DNA of 64,000 nt, taken from NCBI GenBank assembly GCA_947629815.1, contig CANRFG010000002.1, positions 7,539 to 71,538 of the forward strand, in the 5' to 3' direction. The DNA comes from an uncultured Bacilli bacterium. Its GTDB lineage: Bacteria > Bacillota_I > Bacilli_A > RF39 > UBA660. A model generated the notes under the pieces. It was given only the letters and a program-made list of their open reading frames with translations, was not told the origin of the DNA and did not search any database. Made by a program: the position numbers and the translations under genes. Shown one piece after another: positions 7,481-40,933 of the stretch (the first letter of the stretch is position 1; each line of letters opens with the position of its first letter).

Positions 7481-8091
7481 TGATAATGATTATAAATTAT
7501 CAATTAAAATTAGAAGAAATAATAAATGAAAATAAAGATAAATTACCAACATTACTTCTTCATAGTTGTTGTGGACCTTGTAGTAGTTATGTTTTAGAAT
7601 ACTTAAATAAATATTTTAAAATAACAATATTATATTATAATCCTAATATATATCCTTATGATGAATATAAAAAAAGACTTGATGAACAAGTAAGATTAAT
7701 AAATGAATTAAATGTTGAAAATAAAATAAGTATGCTAGAATGTAGTTACGATAATAACGAATATGAGAATGTAATAAAAGGTTTAGAAAACGAAAAAGAG
7801 GGTGGAAGCAGGTGTCATAAGTGTTATGAACTTAGATTAGAAAAAACTGCTAAACTAGCTAAGGAAAATAATTTTGATTATTTTTCTACTACATTAACTG
7901 TAAGCCCTTATAAAAATTCTCAAGTTTTAAATGAAATAGGTTCTAAATTAGAAAAAAAATATAATGTTAAATATTTATATTCTGATTTTAAGAAAAAAAA
8001 TGGATATAAGAGAAGTATAGAATTATCTAAAATATACAATTTATATAGACAAAATTATTGTGGTTGTATTTATTCAAAAAAAACGGATTAA
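7477..8091 (+). CDS. queH: epoxyqueuosine reductase QueH (DUF208)
   Basis: LLLHSCCGPCSSYVLEYL cysteine cluster and CGCIYS C-terminal motif typical of QueH; 204 aa. Confidence 0.85.
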   Translation: MMIMIINYQLKLEEIINENKDKLPTLLLHSCCGPCSSYVLEYLNKYFKITILYYNPNIYPYDEYKKRLDEQVRLINELNVENKISMLECSYDNNEYENVIKGLENEKEGGSRCHKCYELRLEKTAKLAKENNFDYFSTTLTVSPYKNSQVLNEIGSKLEKKYNVKYLYSDFKKKNGYKRSIELSKIYNLYRQNYCGCIYSKKTD

Positions 8092-8104
8092 TCCGTTTTT
8101 TATA
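8075..8104. terminator. bidirectional intrinsic terminator between convergent queH and def (A-run, AACGGA-ttaa-TCCGTT, T-run)
   Basis: Perfect hairpin flanked by A7 and T5 runs; it overlaps the stop codons of both genes. Confidence 0.6.
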
Positions 8105-8648
8105 TTAGTCTTATTTCATTTTCATTAAAGAAAGGTTTATTTTTATCTATTCTATCAAAAAATAATATTCCATTTAAGTGGTCTATTTCATGTTGAAATG
8201 CAATTGATAAATCTTCCCTTGCTCTAATTCTTATTTTGTTTCCATCTTCATCGAATCCTTCAACAGTAACTCTTGCATATCTTGGAACATGTCCTTCAAC
8301 ATCTCTATTTACGCTTAAACAACCTTCGCCAGCTTCTGCAGCAATCATTTCTTCAGAATTACTTATAATTTTAGGATTAATTACTACATAATTATCAAAT
8401 TTTCCTTCTTCATATTCATGTACGATTATTATTATTCTTTTATTTAATCCAAGTTGAGGAAAAGCAAGTCCCATTCCTGGTCTTAAGTTATATTTTTTTT
8501 CGTATTCTTCTATTTGACTATATGTTAATTCTTGAATAGCTTGTTTTATTAATTTTTTATCTTCTTTTGTTAATGGAAAAACAACATCAATTGATTTTTC
8601 TCTTAAACTTTTTTCTTTTTCATCTAAAATATTAAGTTTTTTAAACAT
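8100..8648 (-). CDS. def: peptide deformylase
   Basis: Def motifs GMGLAFPQLG, EGCLSV and QHEIDHLNG are present. Confidence 0.9.
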   Translation of the reverse strand: MFKKLNILDEKEKSLREKSIDVVFPLTKEDKKLIKQAIQELTYSQIEEYEKKYNLRPGMGLAFPQLGLNKRIIIIVHEYEEGKFDNYVVINPKIISNSEEMIAAEAGEGCLSVNRDVEGHVPRYARVTVEGFDEDGNKIRIRAREDLSIAFQHEIDHLNGILFFDRIDKNKPFFNENEIRLI

Positions 8649-8727
8649 AATACCAACTCCACGAATATTATTTTAGCACAAAATACTAAAAAATAAAAGA
8701 AACTTCGAATTTTCGAAGTTTTTATTA

Positions 8728-8901
8728 TTAGTTTTGACCAGGTCCAAAAGCACGAGCTCCTATTACAATAACTAATAATATGAATAATACTAATATGATA
8801 GCAGCACCATATCCAGCGCCATATCCGTAACCTCCACCATTAGAGTATCCACCGCAAGGTTGACCGCAACCATATCCTTGGTATCCACCATAGTAATACA
8901 T
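8728..8901 (-). CDS. YjcZ-family sporulation micro-protein (57 aa, Gly/Tyr-rich N-terminus plus one hydrophobic helix); absent from the supplied ORF track (below its length cutoff)
   Basis: Hand translation gives MYYYGGYQGYGCGQPCGGYSNGGGYGYGAGYGAAIILVLFILLVIVIGARAFGPGQN. A strong RBS (GGAGGTATTAAT) precedes the ATG at 8899-8901. The terminator hairpin at 8701-8720 follows the stop codon. Confidence 0.6.
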   Translation of the reverse strand: MYYYGGYQGYGCGQPCGGYSNGGGYGYGAGYGAAIILVLFILLVIVIGARAFGPGQN

Positions 8902-9050
8902 ATTAATACCTCCATTTCCTAATATAGTTTATTAATTATGTTTAAATAATGTTATATAAAATGTCTAGTTTTTAAATTTTTATTTATGAATTGTTTAATT
9001 AATTTAAAATATGTGTTATTATATAAGAGTAGGTGAGTATATGAAAGGTA

Positions 9051-10198
9051 TTAAAAATACATATCGTGATTTAGATAAACCATTACTTTTTATTACAATC
9101 GGACTATTTATATTTGGTTTATTTAATATAGTAACTGCTTCTAGTAATGAAGCTGTTGAGAGATATGGTGTTTCTATATATTATTATTTTAGTAGACAAT
9201 TATTTATACTTTTTATAGGTTTTATAGCAAGTTTAATTATTTTTAAATTAAATACAAAAACTTATAAACCTCTTTTTACTGTTGCCTTTTTGGTTATTTC
9301 AGCTATTCTTTTTTATTTACTTTTATATGGTTCATTTAATAGAGGTGCAAAGAACTGGGTAAGTATTGGAGGATTTTCTTTTCAGCCTAGTGAATTTGCA
9401 AAACCAATTATAATAGTTTGTTTATCACTTATATTTGATAGTTTTTATAAAATTTTTAGAAATAAAAATAAAAAACATTATAATTTAATAGCTTTAGTAC
9501 TTTTTGTTGGTCTTATGTTACCAGCTATAATATTTTTACAAAAAGATTTAGGAACTATGTTTATAATGATTTGTATATTTTTAGTAATGTTTTTTGGAAG
9601 TCCAATACTAAGAGTAGAAAAAGTAAAAACTATTGGATTACTAGCAGTGCTTGGTCTTATAGCAGTATTAATGATGCAAGTAATTACAGGACATGTACTT
9701 AGTAATGCTCAACTTGCTCGTTTTAATTTTTTTAGTCCTTGCAGTAATTATGAAACAGGTGGTTATCAAACTTGTAATGGTTTTATTGCTATAAATAATG
9801 GTGGGCTTTTAGGTAGTGGTATTGGTAATAGTAAGCAGAAATATTCTTATATTCCAGAACCTCATACTGATATGGTATTTTCTATAATAGCTGAGGAGCA
9901 AGGCTTTATTAAAGGTTCTATTATTCTTATATTTATGTTTTATGTTGTTTACAGAATACTTAAAATATCTGCAAATGCTTCTACTATTAAAGGCAAATAT
10001 ATTTGTTTGGGGGTAGCATCGTATATATTTATGCATATGTTAGTCAATTTAGGTGGTATACTTGCTATTATGCCACTTACAGGTGTTCCTCTTCCTTTCT
10101 TAAGTTATGGTGGTTCGTTTACTTTATCGTTGATTGTTTCTTTAGCAATTGTTCAAAGAGTCAATATTGAAACAAGAAATCAAAAAATAAAAGTATAA
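9051..10198 (+). CDS. SEDS-family peptidoglycan glycosyltransferase (FtsW/RodA/SpoVE family)
   Basis: Polytopic membrane protein with the SEDS C-terminal signature (PLTGVPLPFLSYGGSF). The ATG at 9051 has RBS AGGTGAG; the listed 9011 start is less likely. Confidence 0.85.
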
Positions 10199-10306
10199 AT
10201 TTATTTAAAAATTTATATTTTTTATATAAATCTGTAAAGTGGATATGATAAAAGTGTAAAGTTTTATACTTTTTTTTCATTTTTTTAAAATTATGCCCCA
10301 AACCAC

Positions 10307-10340
10307 TTGACAAATGTCATGGGGGGGGGGGCATAATATA
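10307..10340 (+). promoter_or_regulatory. promoter of pilin-like gene 1: -35 TTGACA (10307-10312), spacer containing an 11-nt poly-G tract (10321-10331), -10-like CATAAT/TAATAT (10332-10339)
   Basis: Seen directly. The spacer length is 19 nt to CATAAT or 21 nt to TAATAT, set entirely by the G-run length. Confidence 0.55.
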
Positions 10341-10367
10341 AGTAAATAATAGAAAAGAGGAAGTAAA

Positions 10368-11444
10368 TTGAGAAAAGGTTTTACATTAGTAGAATTGTTA
10401 GCGGTAATAGTGATACTTGCAATAATAGCGTTAATAACAGTACCAATAATAATGAATGTGGTTGAATCATCAAAAAAAGGAGCAGTTAAAGAAAGCCCGC
10501 AAGAATGGTTTATATTTGAAGATAATAGTGATGGGACAGCAACAATAACAGGAGTATCTGATGTATGGAAAAATTTAGAGGATGAAAATAAATATGATAT
10601 AGCAATCCCTTCAAAATCAACTAATGGAAATAGTGTAACAACAATAGGAGAATATGCATTTAATGGAAACAATCTCACAAGTATTGTTATTCCAAAAAGT
10701 GTCACAACAATAGGAGGCTATGCATTTGAATATAATAATCTCACAAATTTAGTAATTCCAGATAATGTTATAACAATAGAAGATGGTGCATTTGAATATA
10801 ATAATCTTGAAAGTTTAGATTTAGGAAATGGAGTTCAGGCAATTGAAGGGTTTGCATTTTCTTTTAATAAACTCACAGGAGAGTTAGTAATTCCAAATAG
10901 TGTCACAACAATAGGAGCAGGTGCATTTGCTGATAATTTATTAACGAATTTAACAATACCAAAAAGTGTCACAACAATAGGTCCAATGGCATTTAATACA
11001 AATTTATTACCAGATGAACAAGCATTTATTTATAAAAGAAATGAAGATGGTACAGAGGATAAAACAACAATAGTAAGTTATGGTGGTAGTAAAAAAGATA
11101 TAAATATACCTAATAACACTATAATAATTGGATTAGGCGCATTTATGGGTAATAATCTCACAAGTGTAATAATTCCAAATAGTATTACAACAATAGGAGA
11201 TTCTGCATTTGAAGGTAACAATCTAACAAATATAATAATACCTGAAAATATTATAACAATAGAATCATATGCTTTTCGTAAAGATGACTATTCAAATCTA
11301 AATTTAACAAAAATAATAAATAAAACAGGAAAAGAATTTGACTGGGATGCAATTATAAATGGTTCAATTGGTAAAAACTATACATTTGTAAAAGGAACAG
11401 TAGAAAGTGATTATGGAAATGTAGAAGTAACAGATACTGAATAA
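10368..11444 (+). CDS. modular type IV pilin-like protein: prepilin N-terminal cleavage/methylation domain fused to BspA-type leucine-rich repeats (LRR_5); TTG start
   Basis: N-terminus RKGFTLVELLAVIVILAIIALITVPII is a class III signal / N-methylation motif. About ten repeats of the form TIGxxAFxxNNLTxxxIP follow. RBS AGAGGAAG precedes the start. Confidence 0.8.
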   Translation: MRKGFTLVELLAVIVILAIIALITVPIIMNVVESSKKGAVKESPQEWFIFEDNSDGTATITGVSDVWKNLEDENKYDIAIPSKSTNGNSVTTIGEYAFNGNNLTSIVIPKSVTTIGGYAFEYNNLTNLVIPDNVITIEDGAFEYNNLESLDLGNGVQAIEGFAFSFNKLTGELVIPNSVTTIGAGAFADNLLTNLTIPKSVTTIGPMAFNTNLLPDEQAFIYKRNEDGTEDKTTIVSYGGSKKDINIPNNTIIIGLGAFMGNNLTSVIIPNSITTIGDSAFEGNNLTNIIIPENIITIESYAFRKDDYSNLNLTKIINKTGKEFDWDAIINGSIGKNYTFVKGTVESDYGNVEVTDTE

Positions 11445-11451
11445 AAGATAG

Positions 11452-11481
11452 ACTATTGATTTTTAAATCAATAGTTTTTAT
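11452..11481 (+). terminator. intrinsic terminator (ACTATTGAT-ttttaa-ATCAATAGT + T5)
   Basis: 9-bp perfect stem followed by a T-run after the pilin 1 stop. Confidence 0.65.
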
Positions 11482-11570
11482 ATTTTATATTAATTTATAA
11501 AAAAGTTTTAAAAATGTATTTCTATGTATAAAATATGATATAATTAAATAAATACAGAAGGAGGATTTTT

Positions 11571-12953
11571 ATGTATTGTGAACAATGTGGAGAAAAATTA
11601 GAAAAAGATGCAGTTTTTTGTTCTAATTGTGGTGCTAAAGTAAATAAAGAAGAAATAAAAGAAGAAACTAAGCAAGAAACTAAAGAAGAAATTATCGAAA
11701 CAAAGGAAGAACAAGAAGAAAGTAGCGAAATAGTTAAAGAAAATAATAAAAGAGAAGAAGATTCAGTTTTAACTGAAGAAAACAAAGAAACAAAAGAAGA
11801 AATAAAAGAAGATGTAAAACAAAATACAACATCTAAAGAAGTAAAAAATAAAAAAAGTAAGAAACCACTTATAATTACTTTGATATCTATAGTTGGCGCT
11901 GTCATATTATTTGTTTTAGGATATTTCTTATATCAATTTATTGATTTATCTTCACCAATTAAAGAAGATTGGGGTCAAAAATATTACACTTATTTAAAAT
12001 CAGCAGAAGAAGATAAAAATATAGATATAAAATTACCAGAAGATTTAAAAAATTCTAAAATTGGATTTTATGAAATAAAAGGTTTAAATGAACCTATTAT
12101 GATAATAACATATGAAAAACAAAACAACAATTATATGAATATATATTATATAAAAGATAATGAAGTAAAAGTAATTGATTTTAATAATCCTACAAGTATA
12201 CAATTTTTGTATAATATAGAAGAAGATAACTATGACTATTATACATACACACTAAATAACAATAATGAAACCTATAAAAAAATAATTGATGAAATAAATG
12301 GAAGTTCTAAAGATTATACATTTAATGATGAAGAAAAAGATAGTGTAATAGATGTAAATGGAAATGAAATATACATTTTAAAAATGGATAAAACATTCAT
12401 AAAATTAAATACTCAAAATAATACATTAGATTATAATAATAATTTAAAAATAAAAGAATTAAAAAATTTAATTATCGATACAATTAAACAATATGAACCA
12501 CAAGATAAACTTATAAATGATGACATTAAAAACAAAGTTGAAGAAGAAAAGAAAACAGTTAATTCTAAAATAGAAGAAATAAAGAAAGCAGAAGAAGAAG
12601 TAGAAAAGAAAAAAGAAGAAGAACTAAAAAAAGGATACCAAGTTGGAAATGCAACACTTGCTTATGGAACATATAAATTTGATGTTAGTGACTTTAAAGA
12701 CTTAGGATTTAAAGAAGATGATGAGGTTTTAATTCTTAATGTAGATAAAACTTGTCATTATACAAGAAAATCAAATGTAGGTCAACCTATTGATACTGAT
12801 TGTACTTTTGAAAGTGATGATATACTAAATTCATTTGAATTTCAAAAGGGAATAAGCTTATATGATAAAGATGGAAATTTAATATATGGATTTATGGTAT
12901 ATCAAAATAATAGTTTAAGTGACCAATGGCATGGATTAAAGTTTAAAAATTAA
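11571..12953 (+). CDS. zinc-ribbon (CxxC-x14-CxxC) / Lys-Glu-rich linker / single-TM / extracytoplasmic-domain protein, unknown function
   Basis: N-terminus MYCEQCGEKLEKDAVFCSNCGAKV (zinc ribbon). A charged EK-rich segment follows, then a TM helix (PLIITLISIVGAVILFVLGYFLY) and a 330-aa external domain. A strong RBS GGAGGA precedes the start. Confidence 0.7.
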   Translation: MYCEQCGEKLEKDAVFCSNCGAKVNKEEIKEETKQETKEEIIETKEEQEESSEIVKENNKREEDSVLTEENKETKEEIKEDVKQNTTSKEVKNKKSKKPLIITLISIVGAVILFVLGYFLYQFIDLSSPIKEDWGQKYYTYLKSAEEDKNIDIKLPEDLKNSKIGFYEIKGLNEPIMIITYEKQNNNYMNIYYIKDNEVKVIDFNNPTSIQFLYNIEEDNYDYYTYTLNNNNETYKKIIDEINGSSKDYTFNDEEKDSVIDVNGNEIYILKMDKTFIKLNTQNNTLDYNNNLKIKELKNLIIDTIKQYEPQDKLINDDIKNKVEEEKKTVNSKIEEIKKAEEEVEKKKEEELKKGYQVGNATLAYGTYKFDVSDFKDLGFKEDDEVLILNVDKTCHYTRKSNVGQPIDTDCTFESDDILNSFEFQKGISLYDKDGNLIYGFMVYQNNSLSDQWHGLKFKN

Positions 12954-12982
12954 TATCTAGTAAAAAACTAGATATTTTTTTA
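12953..12982 (+). terminator. intrinsic terminator (ATATCTAGT-aaaaa-ACTAGATAT + T7)
   Basis: Perfect 9-bp stem overlapping the stop codon, followed by a T7 run. Confidence 0.65.
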
Positions 12983-13095
12983 TAATCTGTAAAGTGTATA
13001 TAATAAAAGTGTAAAGTTTTAAAAAGTATGTTATTTAATGATTGACAAATGTTATATAACGATAAATAATATAGATAATAGGAAAGAGGAAGTAA

Positions 13096-14388
13096 ATGAA
13101 AAAAGGATTTACATTAGTAGAATTATTAGCAGTAATAGTAATACTTGCAATAATAGCATTAATAACAGTACCAATAATAATGAATATAGTAGAATCATCA
13201 AGAAAGAGTTCTGCAACAGCATCAGCATATGGATACATTGATGGAGTAAAAATAATGTATGCAAAAGAAATGTTATCTGGAAGTGATTTTACATTAGATG
13301 GAAAATTTAATGTAGATGCTGAAGGTAAATTAGATGGACATAATGTAGAAGTAGAAGGAACAAAAGCAAAAGGTGGATATTTAACATATAGTGATGGAAA
13401 AATAACAGAAGGATGTTTAACAATAGGAGATTATAAAGTAACAATAGAAAATGATACTGCAAAAGAAACTGTAAAAGGAGCATGTGATAGTTCTTCAAAT
13501 GGCGATGAATCAGGAACAAATGTAGTATTTAATGATGGAAGAGAGATATATTTTAATGTTGATACAGGAGAAGAATGTACAGTAGAAGATTATGAAGCAG
13601 CAGGAGGACTAGAAGTACAAAGTAAAACAGGTAATAAACAAGGTTGTATGAAATTTTATGCATTTTTAGATAGTGAAGATTCTGAAACAGTTAATTTGCT
13701 ATTAGACCATAATACAACTGCAGAGGTAAAATGGAATTCAAGTCTAAATAATACTGAAGGTCCAAGTACAGAAGATGGTCAATTGTTATCTCAGTTAAAT
13801 AAAGATACAGAAAATTGGCATGGAACAGAAATACCAAAGAACTATTTAGCATCATGGGAATATGATAATCAAACATATAATTATACAGTAGACTATAGCA
13901 AATATAAAGCTCGATTAATAACAACTGAAGAAATTGCTAAAATTGTAAAAAAAGAAGAAAAAAAACTTGAAGAATTATGTGATGATTCATGCATTGATAG
14001 CTATGGCACATTTGATATAACAAATGGTGAGTATTGTGATAGTTACATTTATGATGATTCGGCTTCTGAGGTTTATTGTGTATCTCCTAATTTTGCTACT
14101 GGAGGTAATTATAATGGTGGTATCGTAACTTATGGATGGTTGTTTGATAATTTATCAATTGGTTCTGCTAGTTGTATAATTTATGGTTGTAAAAATGGAC
14201 AAATTGATGATTCATATAATTATTGGACGGCATCTCCTTATGTTTGTGAGTCGTATGTATATGATAATATTATTTATTATTCATGGGTAGTGTCTTACGA
14301 TGGTACTGCTAATAACAATAATATTGGAGGACTCGCAGGTATTCGCCCTGTTATTGAGGTTTCGAAATCTAAATTGTCTAATAGTTAA
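13096..14388 (+). CDS. modular type IV pilin-like protein 2: the same prepilin N-terminus fused to a Cys-rich C-terminal module
   Basis: N-terminus KKGFTLVELLAVIVILAIIALITVPII is nearly identical to pilin-like gene 1 (the first ~110 nt are about 89% identical at nucleotide level). The C-terminal 150 aa contain many Cys residues (CDDSCIDSYG..CDSYIYDD..YCVSPNF..CIIYGCKNGQ). Confidence 0.8.
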   Translation: MKKGFTLVELLAVIVILAIIALITVPIIMNIVESSRKSSATASAYGYIDGVKIMYAKEMLSGSDFTLDGKFNVDAEGKLDGHNVEVEGTKAKGGYLTYSDGKITEGCLTIGDYKVTIENDTAKETVKGACDSSSNGDESGTNVVFNDGREIYFNVDTGEECTVEDYEAAGGLEVQSKTGNKQGCMKFYAFLDSEDSETVNLLLDHNTTAEVKWNSSLNNTEGPSTEDGQLLSQLNKDTENWHGTEIPKNYLASWEYDNQTYNYTVDYSKYKARLITTEEIAKIVKKEEKKLEELCDDSCIDSYGTFDITNGEYCDSYIYDDSASEVYCVSPNFATGGNYNGGIVTYGWLFDNLSIGSASCIIYGCKNGQIDDSYNYWTASPYVCESYVYDNIIYYSWVVSYDGTANNNNIGGLAGIRPVIEVSKSKLSNS

Positions 14389-29439: not shown

Positions 29440-29502
29440 ACTAAATATTATTTTTTATAAATTTATAGACTTTTAATATTTAGTATGTTATAATTAAATT
29501 GC

Positions 29503-29671
29503 CTAAAGATAAGAAATCGTCTGTTAAGAAAAACCTACAAATAAACGATTGGGAATCTAATTTATATGTGGTGTTGAATACCTTTTTATAAGGAATCCTA
29601 AAGCCTATAATGTGATGCCCACCTGGTAGACAGGGTTTATCGTTTCGGACGCCTACATCCTTAGGCTTTTT
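29503..29671 (+). ncRNA. candidate structured small RNA (6S/SsrS-like?), 5-prime and 3-prime ends paired in a long-range closing helix, ending in a hairpin and T6 run
   Basis: GC-enriched 170-nt ORF-free segment. The 5-prime GCCTAAaGATaagaaatCGTC pairs with the 3-prime GACGcctacATCcTTAGGC. The T6 run is followed by an independent TTGATT-17-TATAAT promoter for tcdA. Confidence 0.3.
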
Positions 29672-30948: not shown

Positions 30949-31824
30949 ATGAGAGAAAAAGGTTTTACATTAATTGAACTTGTTTGCGTTATATTGTTGC
31001 TGGCTATAATTATTTCTTTATCTACAATAGCTATTGTTAATGTTGTTCAAAACAGCAAAGAAAGAGAAAATAAAGCTTCTATGGAACTTATAAAGACTGC
31101 AGTAAATGATTATATTGATAAATATGAGAATGATTTTCATATAGAAAATGGTGTTACATATTGTATTGATGTACAGGATTTAATAGATGAAAATTTACTT
31201 ATTTCAAATATTAGTTATGATGGAGAAAAAATAAACGAAAAAACTGTAAAAACAGAATATAACAATAATAATTATTCTTATAAACTAGATGATAAAGAAA
31301 CTTGTATGATTTCTGAAACTAAAAAATATGAAATTACTAATTTAGTTTCAAATGGTAGTTTTGAAAATGGAACAACAGATTGGTCAGGAGATGTAATGAC
31401 AATATCAGATGATACCTCATCTAGTGGTACAAAAAGTTTGTATATTAAAGATATAGATGAAAATCATAATTTTTGGTATACACAAACTATTAACAATATA
31501 TCTGTAGGTGATAAAATATACTATACCTTAAAGTCAAAAGTTTTAAACGGAAGATTTAATATTATTTTGGATGATGATAATGGTACTTCTTTACCAGCTA
31601 GGGAATCATCTGAATTTGTTAAAATTTCTAGTATTTATAGTTCAAAACATGATACCTTTAATGTTCAAGTAGGGTCATCCTATGCTGTTATTGGAGAGGG
31701 ATATATAGATGATGTTATAATTATAAATTTAACAGAAACATTTGGCGCAGGAAATGAACCTTCTAAAGATTGGTGTGATGAACACATAAATTATTTTGAT
31801 GGAACTACGGTTATTTATAAATAA
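30949..31824 (+). CDS. modular type IV pilin-like protein 3: prepilin N-terminus plus a CBM4/9/22-like carbohydrate-binding-type C-terminal module
   Basis: N-terminus REKGFTLIELVCVILLLAIIISL is a prepilin methylation motif. The C-terminal NGSFENGTTDWSG motif is characteristic of CBM_4_9-type beta-sandwich modules. Confidence 0.7.
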   Translation: MREKGFTLIELVCVILLLAIIISLSTIAIVNVVQNSKERENKASMELIKTAVNDYIDKYENDFHIENGVTYCIDVQDLIDENLLISNISYDGEKINEKTVKTEYNNNNYSYKLDDKETCMISETKKYEITNLVSNGSFENGTTDWSGDVMTISDDTSSSGTKSLYIKDIDENHNFWYTQTINNISVGDKIYYTLKSKVLNGRFNIILDDDNGTSLPARESSEFVKISSIYSSKHDTFNVQVGSSYAVIGEGYIDDVIIINLTETFGAGNEPSKDWCDEHINYFDGTTVIYK

Positions 31825-33838: not shown

Positions 33839-34240
33839 TTAATTGATAATATAACTTTTTTCAATATATTTTTGTATTTTATTTTCACTTATAGGATAAA
33901 TAGTGGCAACATAATTATCCTTGTTCTTTTGCAAATTCAATTTAACAACAACGCATACATTTTCCTCTATTTTTTTAAAATAAAGTAAAGAATTTTTACA
34001 TTTATCATAATAAACAAAAAGTGGATTATTTATTATATTTTCAATGTTAGTTATTGCTTTATTATAATTATCTACGCTTGAAAATTCAGAAATGTGTTTT
34101 GTTATGTGTAAGTATAAATCTAATGATTGAACAATTGTTGTGTTTTTATAATCATATAATTTATATTTATCAATTATGTCATTTGAAATTACACCAACAA
34201 TTTTTTTTATTTGCTTTTTGCTCATATTAATCACCACCAT
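33839..34240 (-). CDS. hypothetical protein (133 aa)
   Basis: ORF with RBS GGTGGTGA, preceded by a 230-nt structured leader. Confidence 0.5.
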   Translation of the reverse strand: MVVINMSKKQIKKIVGVISNDIIDKYKLYDYKNTTIVQSLDLYLHITKHISEFSSVDNYNKAITNIENIINNPLFVYYDKCKNSLLYFKKIEENVCVVVKLNLQKNKDNYVATIYPISENKIQKYIEKSYIIN

Positions 34241-34883: not shown

Positions 34884-37418
34884 ATGAAACTAAACGAAGT
34901 CGATGTAACAAAAGTTTCCCCTGGAATAAGACAATATATTGATGTAAAAAAACAAAATCCAGATGTAATAATTTTTTTTAGATTAGGTGATTTTTATGAA
35001 ATGTTTTTTGAAGATGCAATAAACATTTCAAGAGAATTAGAATTAACACTTACAGGAAAAAATGCTGGATTAGAAGAAAAAGTACCAATGTGTGGTATAC
35101 CTTATCATGCTGCTAAATTATATATAGATAAATTAGTAGAAAAAGGATATAAAGTAGGTATATGTGAACAATTAGAAGACCCAAAAACTGCTAAAGGAAT
35201 CGTTAAAAGAGATTTAATACAAATAATAAGTAAGGGTACAATAATGGATAACGAATCCTTAAAAGAATATGAAAATAATTATATTGGTAATATTATAGAT
35301 TTCACACATGCATATGGTGTAAGTTACATAGATATATCAACAGGAGAAGTTAATGTATTTTTAATAGAACATAATAACTCTAAATTAGTAAGTGAAATAG
35401 TAAGTATCGGAATAAAAGAAATAATAGTAACAGATAAAGTAGACTTGTCGATTACTTCAATGCTTGAAAATCAATTTAAAATATCAACTACTGTATTTAA
35501 TGATATAACATCAACAGAATATGAATACATTTATAAAGATATTGAAGATATTAGATATATAGAAACAATAAGACATTTACTAACATATATAACAACAACT
35601 CAAAAAAGAAATATGCAACATATGCAAAAAGCTATTATAAGAGAAAATAAAAATTACTTAAAAATGGATATTCATACTAAAAGAAACTTAGAACTTACAG
35701 AAACATTAAGACTTAAACAAAGAAATTATTCATTAATTTGGTTACTAGATAAAACAAAAACTGCGATGGGCTCTAGAATGCTTAAAAACTATATAGAAAA
35801 TCCATTAATAAATGTAGATGAAATAAATAGAAGATATGATTTTGTTCAAAAATTATTAGAACAATTTATATTAAAAAGTGACTTAGAAAAATGTTTAATA
35901 GAAGTATATGACTTAGAAAGATTAAGTGGTAGAATTGCGTTTGGAAGTGCGAATGCTAGAGATTTATTACAACTTAAAAACTCTATAAAAGTATTACCAA
36001 ATATTAAATCATTACTTGAACAAATTAATTATGACAAATCATTTGATACATTAGAAGAATTATATAACTTATTAGAAGAAAGTATATATGAAAATCCACC
36101 TGTTTCAATAAAAGAAGGATATTTAATAAAAGAAGGATACGATAAAGATTTAGACGAATTAAAAGAACTAAGAAAAGGTGGAAAAGACTTTATCGCTAAA
36201 TTTGAAACAGAAGAAAGAGAAAGAACAGGAATTAAAAATTTAAAAGTAGGCTACAATAGAGTATTTGGATATTATATAGAAGTAAGTAAAGGAAACACAA
36301 ATCTTATAAAAGAAGAATATGGTTATGAAAGAAGACAAACACTTGCTAACTGCGAAAGATATATAAGTCCAATACTAAAAGAAAAGGAATCACTTATATT
36401 AAATGCAGAAGAAAAAATAATAGATTTAGAATATGAATTATTTAATTTAATCAAAGATAAAGTAAAAGAATATATTCCAAAACTTCAAAATATTTCAAAA
36501 ATAATAAGTGAAATAGATGTATTACAATCTTTCGCAACCATTACTGAAGAAAATAATTATGTAAGACCTATTATTACAAAAAACGAAATAGAAATAATAG
36601 AAGGTAGACATCCTGTTGTAGAAAAAGTATTAGAAGGTAGCGAATATGTAGAAAACGATGTAATAATGGATGAAAAAACAAATGTACTTCTTATTACAGG
36701 TCCTAATATGGCCGGTAAATCAACTTATATGAGGCAAATGGCAATAATTGCTATAATGGCTCAAATTGGTTGCTTTGTACCTGCTAAAAGCGCTAAATTA
36801 CCAATATTTGATGCGATATATACAAGAATAGGTGCAAGTGATGATTTAGTAAGTGGAGAATCGACATTTATGGTAGAAATGTTAGAAGCAAATAATGCAA
36901 TACAAAATGCAACAGAAAGAAGTTTAATATTATTTGATGAATTGGGTAGGGGAACTGCTACTTTTGATGGTATGGCTTTAGCACAATCAATAATAGAATA
37001 TATACATGACAACATTAAAGCAAAAACTTTATTTTCAACACATTATCATGAATTAACTGATTTAGAAAACACACTTAAAAACCTTAAAAATGTTCATGTT
37101 TCTGCTCATGAAGAAAATGGTAATATAACTTTTCTGCACAAAGTAAAAGAAGGTAGTATTGATAAAAGTTATGGTATTCATGTTGCTAAACTTGCAAACC
37201 TTCCTGATAGCTTAATAAATAGAGCAAATCAAATATTAAAAATATATGAAAACAAAGAAATTAAAAGAGATGTAAAAATACAAGAAGCACTTCCTATAGA
37301 AGAGTTAATTCCTAAAAAAAGTGAAATAGAAAATATGTTAGATTCAGTTAATCCTTTAGAAATAACTCCAATTGAGGCTTTAAATATACTATATAAATTA
37401 AAAGAAAAAATGAAATAG
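34884..37418 (+). CDS. mutS: DNA mismatch repair protein MutS
   Basis: Full-length MutS with Walker A GPNMAGKSTYMRQ and FDELGRGT motifs. Confidence 0.95.
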   Translation: MKLNEVDVTKVSPGIRQYIDVKKQNPDVIIFFRLGDFYEMFFEDAINISRELELTLTGKNAGLEEKVPMCGIPYHAAKLYIDKLVEKGYKVGICEQLEDPKTAKGIVKRDLIQIISKGTIMDNESLKEYENNYIGNIIDFTHAYGVSYIDISTGEVNVFLIEHNNSKLVSEIVSIGIKEIIVTDKVDLSITSMLENQFKISTTVFNDITSTEYEYIYKDIEDIRYIETIRHLLTYITTTQKRNMQHMQKAIIRENKNYLKMDIHTKRNLELTETLRLKQRNYSLIWLLDKTKTAMGSRMLKNYIENPLINVDEINRRYDFVQKLLEQFILKSDLEKCLIEVYDLERLSGRIAFGSANARDLLQLKNSIKVLPNIKSLLEQINYDKSFDTLEELYNLLEESIYENPPVSIKEGYLIKEGYDKDLDELKELRKGGKDFIAKFETEERERTGIKNLKVGYNRVFGYYIEVSKGNTNLIKEEYGYERRQTLANCERYISPILKEKESLILNAEEKIIDLEYELFNLIKDKVKEYIPKLQNISKIISEIDVLQSFATITEENNYVRPIITKNEIEIIEGRHPVVEKVLEGSEYVENDVIMDEKTNVLLITGPNMAGKSTYMRQMAIIAIMAQIGCFVPAKSAKLPIFDAIYTRIGASDDLVSGESTFMVEMLEANNAIQNATERSLILFDELGRGTATFDGMALAQSIIEYIHDNIKAKTLFSTHYHELTDLENTLKNLKNVHVSAHEENGNITFLHKVKEGSIDKSYGIHVAKLANLPDSLINRANQILKIYENKEIKRDVKIQEALPIEELIPKKSEIENMLDSVNPLEITPIEALNILYKLKEKMK

Positions 37419-37426
37419 AGGTAAAT

Positions 37427-38710
37427 ATGAAAATATTAATAAAAAATGGATTAGTAGTTACTATAAATAAAAATGATGAAATAAAAAAAATGGACATTTT
37501 AATAGAAGATGATGAAATAAAATTTTTAGGTGATAATTATAATGGAAATGTTGATAAAGTAATAGATGCAACAAATAAAGTAATTTTACCGGGTCTAATA
37601 AATACACATACACATTTAGGTATGTCTATATTTAGAGGAACTAGTGATGGACTTTCATTAATGAATTGGTTAAATAATAAAATATGGCCTCTTGAAGATA
37701 AATTAACACCTAAAGATGTATATTATAACAATTTACTTTCTTGTATTGAAATGATAAAAACAGGGACAACTACTTGTTGTGATATGTATTTTGGTGTCAC
37801 TGAAGGTATAAATGCAATAATTAATAGCAAAATAAGATGTGTTTATACAAGATGTTTAATGGATAATGATGGTTTAGGAGATGAAAAAATAAAAGAATTT
37901 TTAGATTTATATAATAATTATAAAGATAAAAATCCTCTTCTAACTTTTAGTGCATCAGTACATTCAATGTATACTTGTTCATATGAATATTTAAAAAAGG
38001 TTAAAAAATTAGCAGATGAAAACAATTTATTATTAAATATACATTGCGCTGAAAATATAGAAGAAATAAACACAATAAAAGAAAAATATAATAAAACTCC
38101 TATACAATTGTTAGATGAACTTGGATATTTACAAAGTAAACTTCTTTTAGCCCATGGCACTTATATAACTGATGAAGATATAAAACTATTAAAAAATAAA
38201 AATGTTTCTATTGCTCATAATCCAATAAGTAATTTAAATTTAGGTTGTGGTATTGCTCCAATTAGTAAATTTGTTAAATACAATATAAATGTTTCAATAG
38301 GAACAGATGGACAGGGTAGTGGAAATAACTTAAATTTATTCAATCATATAGGATATGTTGATTTATTACAAAAAGGTTTTAATAAAGATGCACAAATAAT
38401 TGAATCATATGATGTACTTAAAATGGCTACAATAAATGGCGCTAAAGCACTTGGACTTGATAATTTAGTAGGAAGTATAGAAGTAGGTAAAAAAGCAGAT
38501 ATTATTATATTAGATATGAATAATATAGAAATTTTTCCAACAAACAATCTAATATTTGATATAGTACATAATATATCTATAAATAATATAGAAACAACTA
38601 TTATAAATGGAAATATATTGATGGAAAATCATAAATTATTACTAGATGTAAATATAGATGATTTAAAAGAAAATATTAATAATATACTTAAAAAGATGGG
38701 TGAAATATGA
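37427..38710 (+). CDS. amidohydrolase, 5-methylthioadenosine/S-adenosylhomocysteine deaminase family (MtaD-like)
   Basis: Metal-binding HTH motif (LPGLINTHTHLGMSIFRG), chlorohydrolase-family layout, 427 aa. Confidence 0.75.
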   Translation: MKILIKNGLVVTINKNDEIKKMDILIEDDEIKFLGDNYNGNVDKVIDATNKVILPGLINTHTHLGMSIFRGTSDGLSLMNWLNNKIWPLEDKLTPKDVYYNNLLSCIEMIKTGTTTCCDMYFGVTEGINAIINSKIRCVYTRCLMDNDGLGDEKIKEFLDLYNNYKDKNPLLTFSASVHSMYTCSYEYLKKVKKLADENNLLLNIHCAENIEEINTIKEKYNKTPIQLLDELGYLQSKLLLAHGTYITDEDIKLLKNKNVSIAHNPISNLNLGCGIAPISKFVKYNINVSIGTDGQGSGNNLNLFNHIGYVDLLQKGFNKDAQIIESYDVLKMATINGAKALGLDNLVGSIEVGKKADIIILDMNNIEIFPTNNLIFDIVHNISINNIETTIINGNILMENHKLLLDVNIDDLKENINNILKKMGEI

Positions 38711-40191: not shown

Positions 40192-40307
40192 ATATAATTT
40201 TTTTAGAAATGATGCATATAATGTATTAAAAGTAAATAGTTTTTATTAAAAAAAATAAAAAACTTTTCAAATTTGACAAAAAAGTGTAAATTTGATATAC
40301 TTGATAT

Positions 40308-40933
40308 ATATTGATTGGCACATTATTCTAGTCAATATGATTTATTAGGAAGACGGGGCTAAAAATCCGTTAAAGAGCATATCTGTGAAACTTTTGGTGT
40401 TTGCTTCTTACGCCCAGTTTGGGGTGAATGCTGGAAGGTAGAGTTATGGGCGCACATAATGGCATATGTTTCCGACCCATTCCTCATGGAGACCTAATCT
40501 TGTGGTAAGCATATACACATACCGTTGACTTGACTTACTACGACTTAGGCTTGAACCTACTTTGTGGCGAAAGTTATGAGTAGTGTAGCTTGTCTTGAGT
40601 GGATATTTGGAACGAATGAACAATTTTAAGTAATTTATAGCTAAGATTATTTAAAAATCGCATTCTGAAATTATGTCTGCAAAAAAGAATTATTAATAAA
40701 TCAGTTGGGGAGGAAATCTCCTAGAGTGTCATTGATATAGGATTGCAGTGTGTACTAAGTGGCAATCGAGTAATATAATAGGTAACTATATATCTGCTTT
40801 TTTAAAGGGGAACCGCAAGTATGGTAACATCTTGTAAGAGCAGGGGAAATCCAACTCGACCTAAGACACAAAGTTAACTATATTAATAGCCAGACAAGAG
40901 TTTTAAAGGGGGAAATTACCCTTTTTATTTTTT
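40308..40933 (+). ncRNA. large structured noncoding RNA, about 625 nt; candidate OLE (ornate large extremophilic) RNA
   Basis: ORF-free on both strands and markedly GC-enriched against a 22-25% GC background. It has its own promoter (TTGACA-17-TATACT at 40273-40301) and intrinsic terminator (AAAGGG-N8-CCCTTT + T-run at 40905-40933). The size matches OLE. A small polytopic membrane protein follows immediately, and nusB-xseA-xseB lie adjacent, which is the conserved OLE/oapA neighbourhood. Confidence 0.45.

Follow-up and report, generated by a model that had tools for sequence, protein, structure and literature searches.

A poly-G tract in the predicted promoter spacer of a modular type IV pilin gene: a candidate slipped-strand switch in a low-GC gut bacterium

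What is a run of eleven consecutive Gs (G11) doing in the promoter of a pilin-like gene, in DNA that has only 23.2% G+C? The locus lies in a stretch of 64,000 nucleotides (64 kb), which we call the window, of contig CANRFG010000002.1 from an uncultured Bacilli bacterium. An earlier note on this DNA had proposed that the run is a phase-variation switch. After comparing the locus with its relatives in genomes and metagenomes, we think it probable, judging from sequence, that the tract is a promoter-spacer slippage switch of the classical type, and that it drives a modular type IV pilin gene.

The run is the sole G or C homopolymer longer than 5 nucleotides (nt) in the window, and the next longest are four runs of G5 and two of C5. 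If positions are independent and identically distributed, so that base composition alone matters, 1.1 × 10^-5 G runs of length 11 or more are expected per window, in agreement with the earlier judgement that a chance origin is vanishingly unlikely. The tract is found exactly where it had been described, between a perfect consensus -35 hexamer, TTGACA, and a group of overlapping -10-like hexamers. The order along the promoter is ATTATGCCCCAAACCAC-TTGACA-AATGTCAT-GGGGGGGGGGG-CATAAT-ATAAGTAAATAATAGAAAAGAGGAAGTAAA-TTG, the last triplet being the start codon. The likeliest -10 is CATAAT, and the overlapping candidates are TAATAT (10334-10339, with a spacer of 21 base pairs, bp) and TATAAG (10337-10342, at 24 bp from the -35). 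The spacer from TTGACA to CATAAT is 19 bp with G11, 18 bp with G10 and 17 bp with G9, so the earlier arithmetic, by which the loss of one to three Gs would bring the promoter to 17-18 bp, is roughly right.

How could such a tract control a gene? It would be a hypermutable simple-sequence repeat, placed in the spacer of a sigma-A-type promoter that precedes a stand-alone modular pilin gene. Slipped-strand mispairing in replication would cause the gain or loss of a single G, and each of these changes would shift the distance between TTGACA and CATAAT by one bp. Sigma-70-type promoters work best with a spacer of 17 ± 1 bp, and they are weak at 19 bp or more. If the two hexamers are the working promoter and if transcription depends on the length between them, then the G11 allele of the window (19 bp) is predicted to be low or OFF, and the G9 and G10 alleles to be ON. 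The outcome would be a heritable and reversible heterogeneity from cell to cell in how a leucine-rich repeat (LRR) module is displayed on filaments of the type IV or Com type, with a possible benefit in adhesion or in the evasion of immunity or phages.

The length heterogeneity that the earlier note predicted does exist. Exact-protein look-ups found three metagenome contigs, from independent ENA assemblies, that include the locus with the same flanks, two with G11 (L001 and L005) and one with G10 (L003), all virtually identical to the window over about 8050 to 13175; the identical pilin protein is present in two other assemblies. Over 5.7 kb, L003 and the window have no mismatch, the one indel between them is the difference of G10 versus G11, and none of the five 8-nt A/T runs in the same stretch differ between the two. 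The other contigs have small changes elsewhere: a 9-nt in-frame deletion in the neighboring zinc-ribbon gene (L001), and a 3-nt change in the pilin gene (L005). At about 3x coverage, the single G10/G11 difference is suggestive support for length variation in the species of the window. An exact 21-mer search of the JGI metagenomes for the window promoter returned 0 matches; therefore, the species is absent from the JGI metagenomes. A deformylase look-up gave nine contigs in which we saw no new tract, one of them a Logan contig that ends about 70 nt before the tract.

A human-gut relative offers many more samples of the same kind of tract. We took four homologs of the LRR pilin irrespective of tracts (P0036, P0002, P0003 and P0025). 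Three are tract-less, and P0036 has the promoter TTGACAaact-G9-tggtaaTATAAT. The 90%-identity cluster of P0036 is found on many contigs, and exact look-ups of three of its members (P0122-P0124) produced 18 more loci from different samples. Over the 2.7 kb of gene and downstream sequence, identity among these loci is 98.3% or more, except for one 1.7-kb contig at 97.7%. In what is the same promoter, the tracts of 17 assemblies are G8, G9, G10, at least G10 (at a contig start), G11 in seven loci, G12 in four, G14 and G16, with TTGACA-TATAAT spacers from 17 to 24 bp, and two more scaffolds have N-gaps exactly at the tract. As an example, a locus with G8 (L143) and a locus with G11 (L142) are separated by just 6 substitutions in 2,700 nt. 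There is no further G/C run of 7 nt or more in the loci of this family that we checked (L131, L141-L150). As it appears in these assemblies, the G8-G16 range exceeds by far what homopolymer sequencing error could yield, and, as the comparison of these loci shows, the length of such promoter tracts changes much faster than the flanking sequence.

To see how often this arrangement is found, we scanned metagenomes for a run of eight or more Gs followed, 25-55 nt on, by the prepilin coding motif KGFTL[IV]E, which matched at least 120 loci. Among the matches listed, about 33 low-GC loci (contigs of 25-34% GC, many from the human gut) share one layout, in which a perfect TTGACA is followed after 2-11 nt by G8-G11, and then, 0-7 nt after the run, by a -10 hexamer (TATACT, TATAAT, TAAAAT or TACAAT) that usually abuts it; after about 30 nt more come a ribosome-binding site (RBS) and a prepilin start. 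The flanks of these listed loci belong to a dozen or more unrelated families, and the promoter among them most like that of the window is the one in L085, TTGACAAATGTTCTA-G10-TATAAT. Spacers in the 33 or so loci measure 15-20 bp, most often 19, a distribution that is biased to long spacers by the requirement of G8 or more. Comparing the families by eye, and with the same G8+ ascertainment, we find no clear trend of run length compensating for the rest of the spacer.

The listed loci also provide an internal control. In 400,630 nt of low-GC listed loci there are 50 G/C runs of 8 nt or more, and all 50 lie upstream of a pilin N-terminus, including one that was not selected by the scan (the promoter of a second, tandem pilin gene at L014:2498). 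Of the 10 listed pairs of loci whose flanks are 90% or more identical, 7 differ in tract length, as in G8 versus G10 or G9 versus G11. The proteins behind these tracts are modular pilins with varied C-terminal parts, and several assemblies give more than one locus among the matches listed (four VOFC01 contigs, two ORRE01, two OUQF01). In one metagenome family, which we refer to as 'CCACTTGACAAGT-Gn' for its promoter, the paralogs share a promoter and N-terminus cassette, as they do in the lineage of the window. That the layout recurs before prepilin genes in unrelated low-GC contigs argues for promoter-spacer phase variation, as the earlier note had it.

Has the tract always been part of this promoter? 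The window has a second modular pilin gene, a paralog of the first, and the earlier note was correct in giving it the same -35 context and no G tract: its promoter shares the TTGACAAATGT block and the upstream box with that of the tract-bearing gene, its spacer is 17 bp, and a G run is lacking. From its sequence, this promoter serves as an internal reference for the ancestral geometry. We aligned five promoters: that of the tract-bearing gene, its G10 allele, that of the paralog, and those of two loci from a related species. One of these (L006) is the locus of P0002, the closest homolog of the tract-bearing pilin with 63% identity; the other (L007) is a syntenic ftsW-pilin-zinc-ribbon-comEA-comEC locus from the metagenome-assembled genome (MAG) of an 'uncultured Bacilli bacterium' of rabbit gut, with an FtsW that is 88% identical. 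The invariant blocks are the upstream box (AATCTGTAAAGT), TTGACAAA.GT.AT at the -35, and the RBS with the start region; the first copy of the upstream box is invariant in the paralog, L006 and L007. From the beginning of TTGACA to the start codon there are 54 nt in all three tract-less promoters and 61 nt in the tract-bearing one, where the G run stands in place of the 'ATAACG'/'AAAGTT' of the related promoters and adds about 5 nt. A T-rich insertion further upstream is likewise absent from the paralog and ortholog promoters, and the positional homolog of the paralog -10 is TATAAG.

In the comparison with related loci, which the earlier note had called for, the -35, the upstream box and the RBS are conserved in L006 and L007, and neither locus has a tract. 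A scan of the genome collection with FtsW found two related species. One of them (L007) keeps the synteny, with a single, different pilin and no tract, and the other (L008) has no pilin gene at the locus; therefore, the tract is not conserved at this locus between species. As far as this alignment tells, the tract is derived and peculiar to this gene, inside a promoter with a conserved -35.

What kind of protein would such a switch control? As the earlier note held, the gene encodes a pilin with a BspA-type LRR, and the N_methyl match scores above the curated cut-off. There is a class III signal peptide, MRKG/FTLVELLAVIVILAIIALITVPII, with G at -1, E at +5 and then a hydrophobic alpha1-N helix. 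Residues 1-39 (signal peptide and alpha1) are joined straight to an extra, non-pilin C-terminal module, LRR_5, and a protein alignment with P0002, the L007 pilin (L007:7285-8163) and the paralog reveals that the globular pilin head of about 104 amino acids is missing. Relatives in the PDB are LRR cell-surface proteins, among them pneumococcal PcpA and Treponema TpLRR. By its sequence features, the protein would belong with the modular type IV pilins in part, its head being missing.

The paralog has the same first 37 residues and does have the globular head. Its C-terminal module is a weak DUF6273-like match ('GCMK.Y...LDHNTTA...GIRPVIEVSK'), a type also present on the pilins with poly-G promoters in L013, L083, L092 and L085, and an exact-protein look-up gave no record of the paralog elsewhere. 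In L007, the single pilin at this site looks chimeric, with a paralog-like head and a short LRR-type tail. Together with the headless pilin of the window, this chimera suggests, as far as the sequences go, that cassettes are shuffled via the shared 5′ region. The genes adjoining the tract-bearing pilin are ftsW and the gene for a zinc-ribbon protein, and comEA and comEC lie downstream of the pilin locus. We see no prepilin peptidase, ATPase or platform protein among the approximately 26 annotated of the 59 window open reading frames (ORFs) of at least 120 amino acids. A third prepilin-type gene (30949-31824, + strand, 291 amino acids, N_methyl only) is found after a ThiF gene and an unknown gene, with no upstream G run. 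The features of the two pilin promoters and genes are collected in Table 1.

Table 1. Features of the tract-bearing pilin locus and of its paralog, in window positions
Feature	Position	Strand	Evidence
Upstream conserved box, direct copies ATAAATCTGTAAAGT and ATAAAAGTGTAAAGT, spaced 22 nt	10226-10262	+	direct-repeat search
T-rich insertion of 20 nt, TACTTTTTTTTCATTTTTTT, including T8, between upstream box and -35	10267-10286	+	alignment gap
Quasi-palindrome with 32-nt arms, centre 10313/10314	10281-10346	.	inverted-repeat search, folding
-35 hexamer TTGACA, perfect consensus	10307-10312	+	sequence; invariant across five aligned pilin promoters
G11 homopolymer in promoter spacer, proposed slipped-strand switch	10321-10331	+	sequence; G10/G11 among assemblies
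Likeliest -10 hexamer CATAAT, adjoining the G run	10332-10337	+	sequence; -10 also abuts the run in most related families
Ribosome-binding site AGAGGAAG, about 5-7 nt ahead of the TTG start	10356-10363	+	sequence; kept in paralog
Tract-bearing pilin-like gene, TTG start, 358 amino acids	10368-11444	+	Pfam: N_methyl E = 2.6e-6, LRR_5 E = 1e-49
Paralog promoter without tract, TTGACA, 17 bp, AATAAT	13042-13070	+	promoter scan, 11/12 consensus matches
Paralogous modular pilin, 430 amino acids	13096-14388	+	Pfam, alignment

Other elements of the region deserve a description. The upstream box, of which ATCTGTAAAGT is found in the window at 10230 and 12985 only, is a possible activator site or UP-like element common to the pilin promoters of this lineage, as its conservation would have it. 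Within the quasi-palindrome, a perfect 10-bp inverted repeat, ATTATGCCCC (10290-10299) and GGGGCATAAT (10328-10337), encloses the -35 with its arms 28 bp apart, and the GGGGCATAAT arm consists of the last four Gs of the run plus the CATAAT hexamer. A DNA hairpin over the quasi-palindrome folds with -13.6 kcal/mol (z = -3.8). In alignments, the quasi-palindrome has no counterpart in the paralog promoter, in the L006 and L007 promoters, or in that of L085, the closest metagenomic one. Several other families (L125, L041, L083, L014) have, instead of the palindrome, a C3-C5 run just 5′ of the -35. An Rfam scan of 9500-14000 found no RNA family, and a known riboswitch or leader is therefore unlikely. 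A terminator scan of 9900-13300 found no strong terminator between ftsW and the tract-bearing pilin gene; 5′ of the paralog there is a clean terminator, and then the TTGACA promoter.

The metagenome scan also found G tracts in other settings. In one class (L082, L009, L063, L028, L103, L109), the G10-G11 tract is part of a long prepilin leader ORF, ATG..AATATG-Gn-CAG..; the reading frame is kept in L082 and L009 and lost in L063 and L028. From their position, these look like a translational switch of the frameshift type, not a promoter switch. In a second class (L047, L096, L101, L111, L122, L066, L086, L092, L114), the hairpin GTTTGC-N5-GCAAAC is followed by G9-G10, TAAACAACCCTCTTTTTT and the pilin gene; this may be either a weak promoter (TTGCCG..TAAACA) or a terminator-like element with the G run in the stem. 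Contigs of about 50% GC (L043, L058, L084, L017, L010 and L095, several of them Ga0099364) have G13-G24 upstream of prepilin genes, and these runs adjoin a conserved 'GTAAGCCCTTAA..AAGGACTTACG' hairpin; some are at contig ends, and a possible artefact. At codons 2-4, some copies in the 'CCACTTGACAAGT-Gn' family (L041, L113) also contain an A7-A8 run (ATGAAAAAAAGG) which puts the pilin out of frame, and which may be a second hypermutable tract or a sign of gene decay.

Can we be confident that the tract in the window acts by changing the spacer? Several observations speak against it. The listed spacers cluster at 18-20 bp and not at 17 bp, and this could be because most populations are OFF, or because of the ascertainment at G8+, or because the tract has a role beyond spacing. 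The metagenome scan has no denominator. Read-through from ftsW, in the absence of a strong terminator, might blunt any switch. In the alignment the ancestral -10 maps to TATAAG, at 24 bp from the -35, which makes the working hexamer uncertain. And in the species of the window itself, just one of the four assemblies differs, at an ENA coverage of about 3x, for which Illumina errors at G10-G11 are plausible. Taking the clustering of spacers at face value, the run could be a fixed promoter or operator element, either a special geometry or a regulator site, and its length variation an unselected homopolymer instability. Such an element would account for the run being always on the coding strand across unrelated families, usually abutting the -10, and for a modal spacer of 19 instead of 17; and in the window the perfect 10-bp inverted repeat around the -35 has the run as one of its arms, like the operator of a dimeric protein. 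But neither the paralog nor L085, the most similar metagenomic promoter, has that palindrome, and G8-G16 in one species is hard to square with a site of specific length. Moreover, any change in spacer length alters the geometry of the promoter anyway. In the literature searched we found no G-tract-binding factor for such promoters, and to our knowledge none has been described. We consider a fixed element to be unlikely.

The missing terminator also bears on where transcription starts. Should the gene be transcribed from a promoter elsewhere, by read-through from ftsW or from a start further upstream, the G run would be part of the 5′ leader, and it would act, if at all, via RNA or DNA structure. 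That there is no terminator-like site between ftsW and the gene is in line with this, and so are the stable hairpin into which the region folds and the separate metagenomic class where G9-G10 stands between a hairpin and a C-rich T-run segment, maybe not as a spacer. A leader element has nonetheless very little probability in our estimation, given that in about 33 listed loci of many families the run is bracketed by TTGACA (2-11 nt upstream) and a -10 hexamer (0-7 nt downstream), that the -10 and the RBS are as far apart as in a typical short leader, that the paralog has a clean terminator of its own and then the same promoter, and that Rfam has no match. One may also suspect the data: a poly-G produced by two-colour chemistry, or a mis-called homopolymer, would be a sequencing or assembly artefact. 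The low ENA coverage for this species, the Logan contig that stops short of the tract, and the two scaffolds of the homologous locus with N-gaps at the tract all give reason to ask. Yet the run is contig-internal with unique flanks on both sides in four assemblies of this species, and a run at this same promoter position is shared by dozens of contigs that come from many independent studies. Instrument poly-G artefacts are found at the ends of reads or contigs, and they are much longer. We find an artefact hardly credible. With these alternatives considered, promoter-spacer slippage is the reading that we prefer.

Two other candidates were rejected. The hallmark of an inverton is a promoter segment of about 100-700 bp between two inverted repeats, together with a site-specific recombinase; here the inverted-repeat arms have only 10 bp and are 28 bp apart, and the neighbors are ftsW and a zinc-ribbon protein. 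A G-quadruplex was discarded by reasoning, as one G11 run cannot supply four G-tracts. Finally, the loss of mismatch repair as a cause of tract instability is unsupported: a full-length MutS with its five domains is encoded at 34884-37418, and therefore the instability need not reflect such a loss. In the region 34884-38710, MutS is followed by an amidohydrolase, not by mutL, and MutL was not seen among the annotated ORFs of the window.

The window has further features unrelated to the pilins. There is a full-length ornate large extremophilic (OLE) RNA at 40299-40909 (+ strand), with 391 bits versus a gathering score of 50, which is notable in a gut organism of 23% GC. A 6S RNA with 55.7 bits is found at 29497-29671 (+), just 5′ of a ThiF-family gene. 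A stand-alone protein with a PBECR3 domain (a barnase/EndoU/colicin-like nuclease) is encoded at 33839-34240 (-). And a small membrane protein of 57 amino acids, rich in Gly and Tyr, is encoded at 8728-8901 (-) and is conserved beside def in all related contigs.

How does this locus compare with the known switches? In Neisseria meningitidis, slippage of spacer tracts in porA (poly-G) and opc (poly-C) results in graded or ON/OFF transcription of surface proteins. A third tract, the intergenic C(10-14) of fetA, is listed as known (PMC5953494). The likeness to porA, opc and fetA would be in the G/C homopolymer of about 9-14 nt between -35 and -10, and in the spacer being altered by single-nt slippage. 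The difference is in the setting: Neisseria has about 50% GC and many contingency loci, and these are Gram-negative outer-membrane proteins, whereas here we have a pilin-like protein in a Gram-positive-type gut bacterium of 23% GC. Mycoplasma hyorhinis, a low-GC and Firmicute-derived organism, has a poly-A between -35 and -10 of each vlp gene, which permits an independent and combinatorial switching of its surface. Like the vlp genes, with their conserved promoter and 5′ cassette and their divergent 3′ parts, the lineage of the window and the 'CCACTTGACAAGT-Gn' family share a promoter and N-terminus cassette; but in vlp the tracts are poly-A and the proteins are lipoproteins, while here they are poly-G and pilins, and just one of the two pilin promoters in the window has a tract.

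Known G tracts act on pili in another way. In Neisseria pilC, which encodes a pilus-associated adhesin, a poly-G tract in the coding sequence acts by frameshift. In Bifidobacterium breve, a G tract in the coding region makes a sortase pilus phase-variable (PMC9187656). Those tracts are inside coding sequences and act by frameshift, unlike the tract of the window, which is in a promoter; the coding version is found in some of the metagenomic prepilin leaders. On the side of the protein, more than 1,200 modular type IV pilins with 264 architectures have been reported, and in Streptococcus sanguinis the grafted ligand-binding modules of PilB and PilC are thought to be at the filament tip and to mediate adhesion (PMC8179133). 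The window pilin resembles PilB and PilC in having an N-terminal pilin part and an extra module. It differs in that the module is LRR_5 and the protein headless (the text of PMC8179133 has no mention of LRR or 'leucine-rich'), and the S. sanguinis pilins are not known to be phase-variable.

Phase variation in gut commensals has been studied mostly as invertible promoters (Bacteroides, C. difficile) and methylation switches. Contingency loci made of simple sequences are, in the literature searched, mainly those of Neisseria, Haemophilus, Campylobacter, Helicobacter and mycoplasmas. In that literature we found no poly-G or other homopolymer promoter tract controlling type IV pilins of Firmicutes, the nearest being the coding tract of B. 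breve (PMC9187656). The mechanism of promoter-spacer slippage is already known, and what would be new is the bacterial group and the pilin target, for which we found no earlier report.

We give about even chances to a broader proposal. It is that unrelated lineages of low-GC gut Firmicutes (human, rabbit gut and others) keep G8-G16 tracts abutting the -10 of stand-alone modular pilin genes with differing modules (LRR_5, DUF6273-like and others), often with several of them per genome or assembly that share a promoter and N-terminus cassette. Independent slippage in each would then result in a stochastic and combinatorial choice of modules per cell, and the mycoplasma Vlp system would have a counterpart in the pili of Gram-positive bacteria. 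Genes of this kind have a signature that can be searched for: TTGACA, a G run of at least 8, a -10 hexamer, and a prepilin N-terminus. The P0036 family, with G8-G16, is a well-sampled human-gut locus suited to direct testing from existing reads and metatranscriptomes.

If the switch is real, uncultured low-GC gut Firmicutes vary the binding modules that they display on pili by means of poly-G promoter switches. This would bear on adhesion, on the evasion of immunoglobulin A (IgA) or phages, and possibly on DNA uptake. It would also mean that the presence of a pilin gene in a MAG does not predict its expression.

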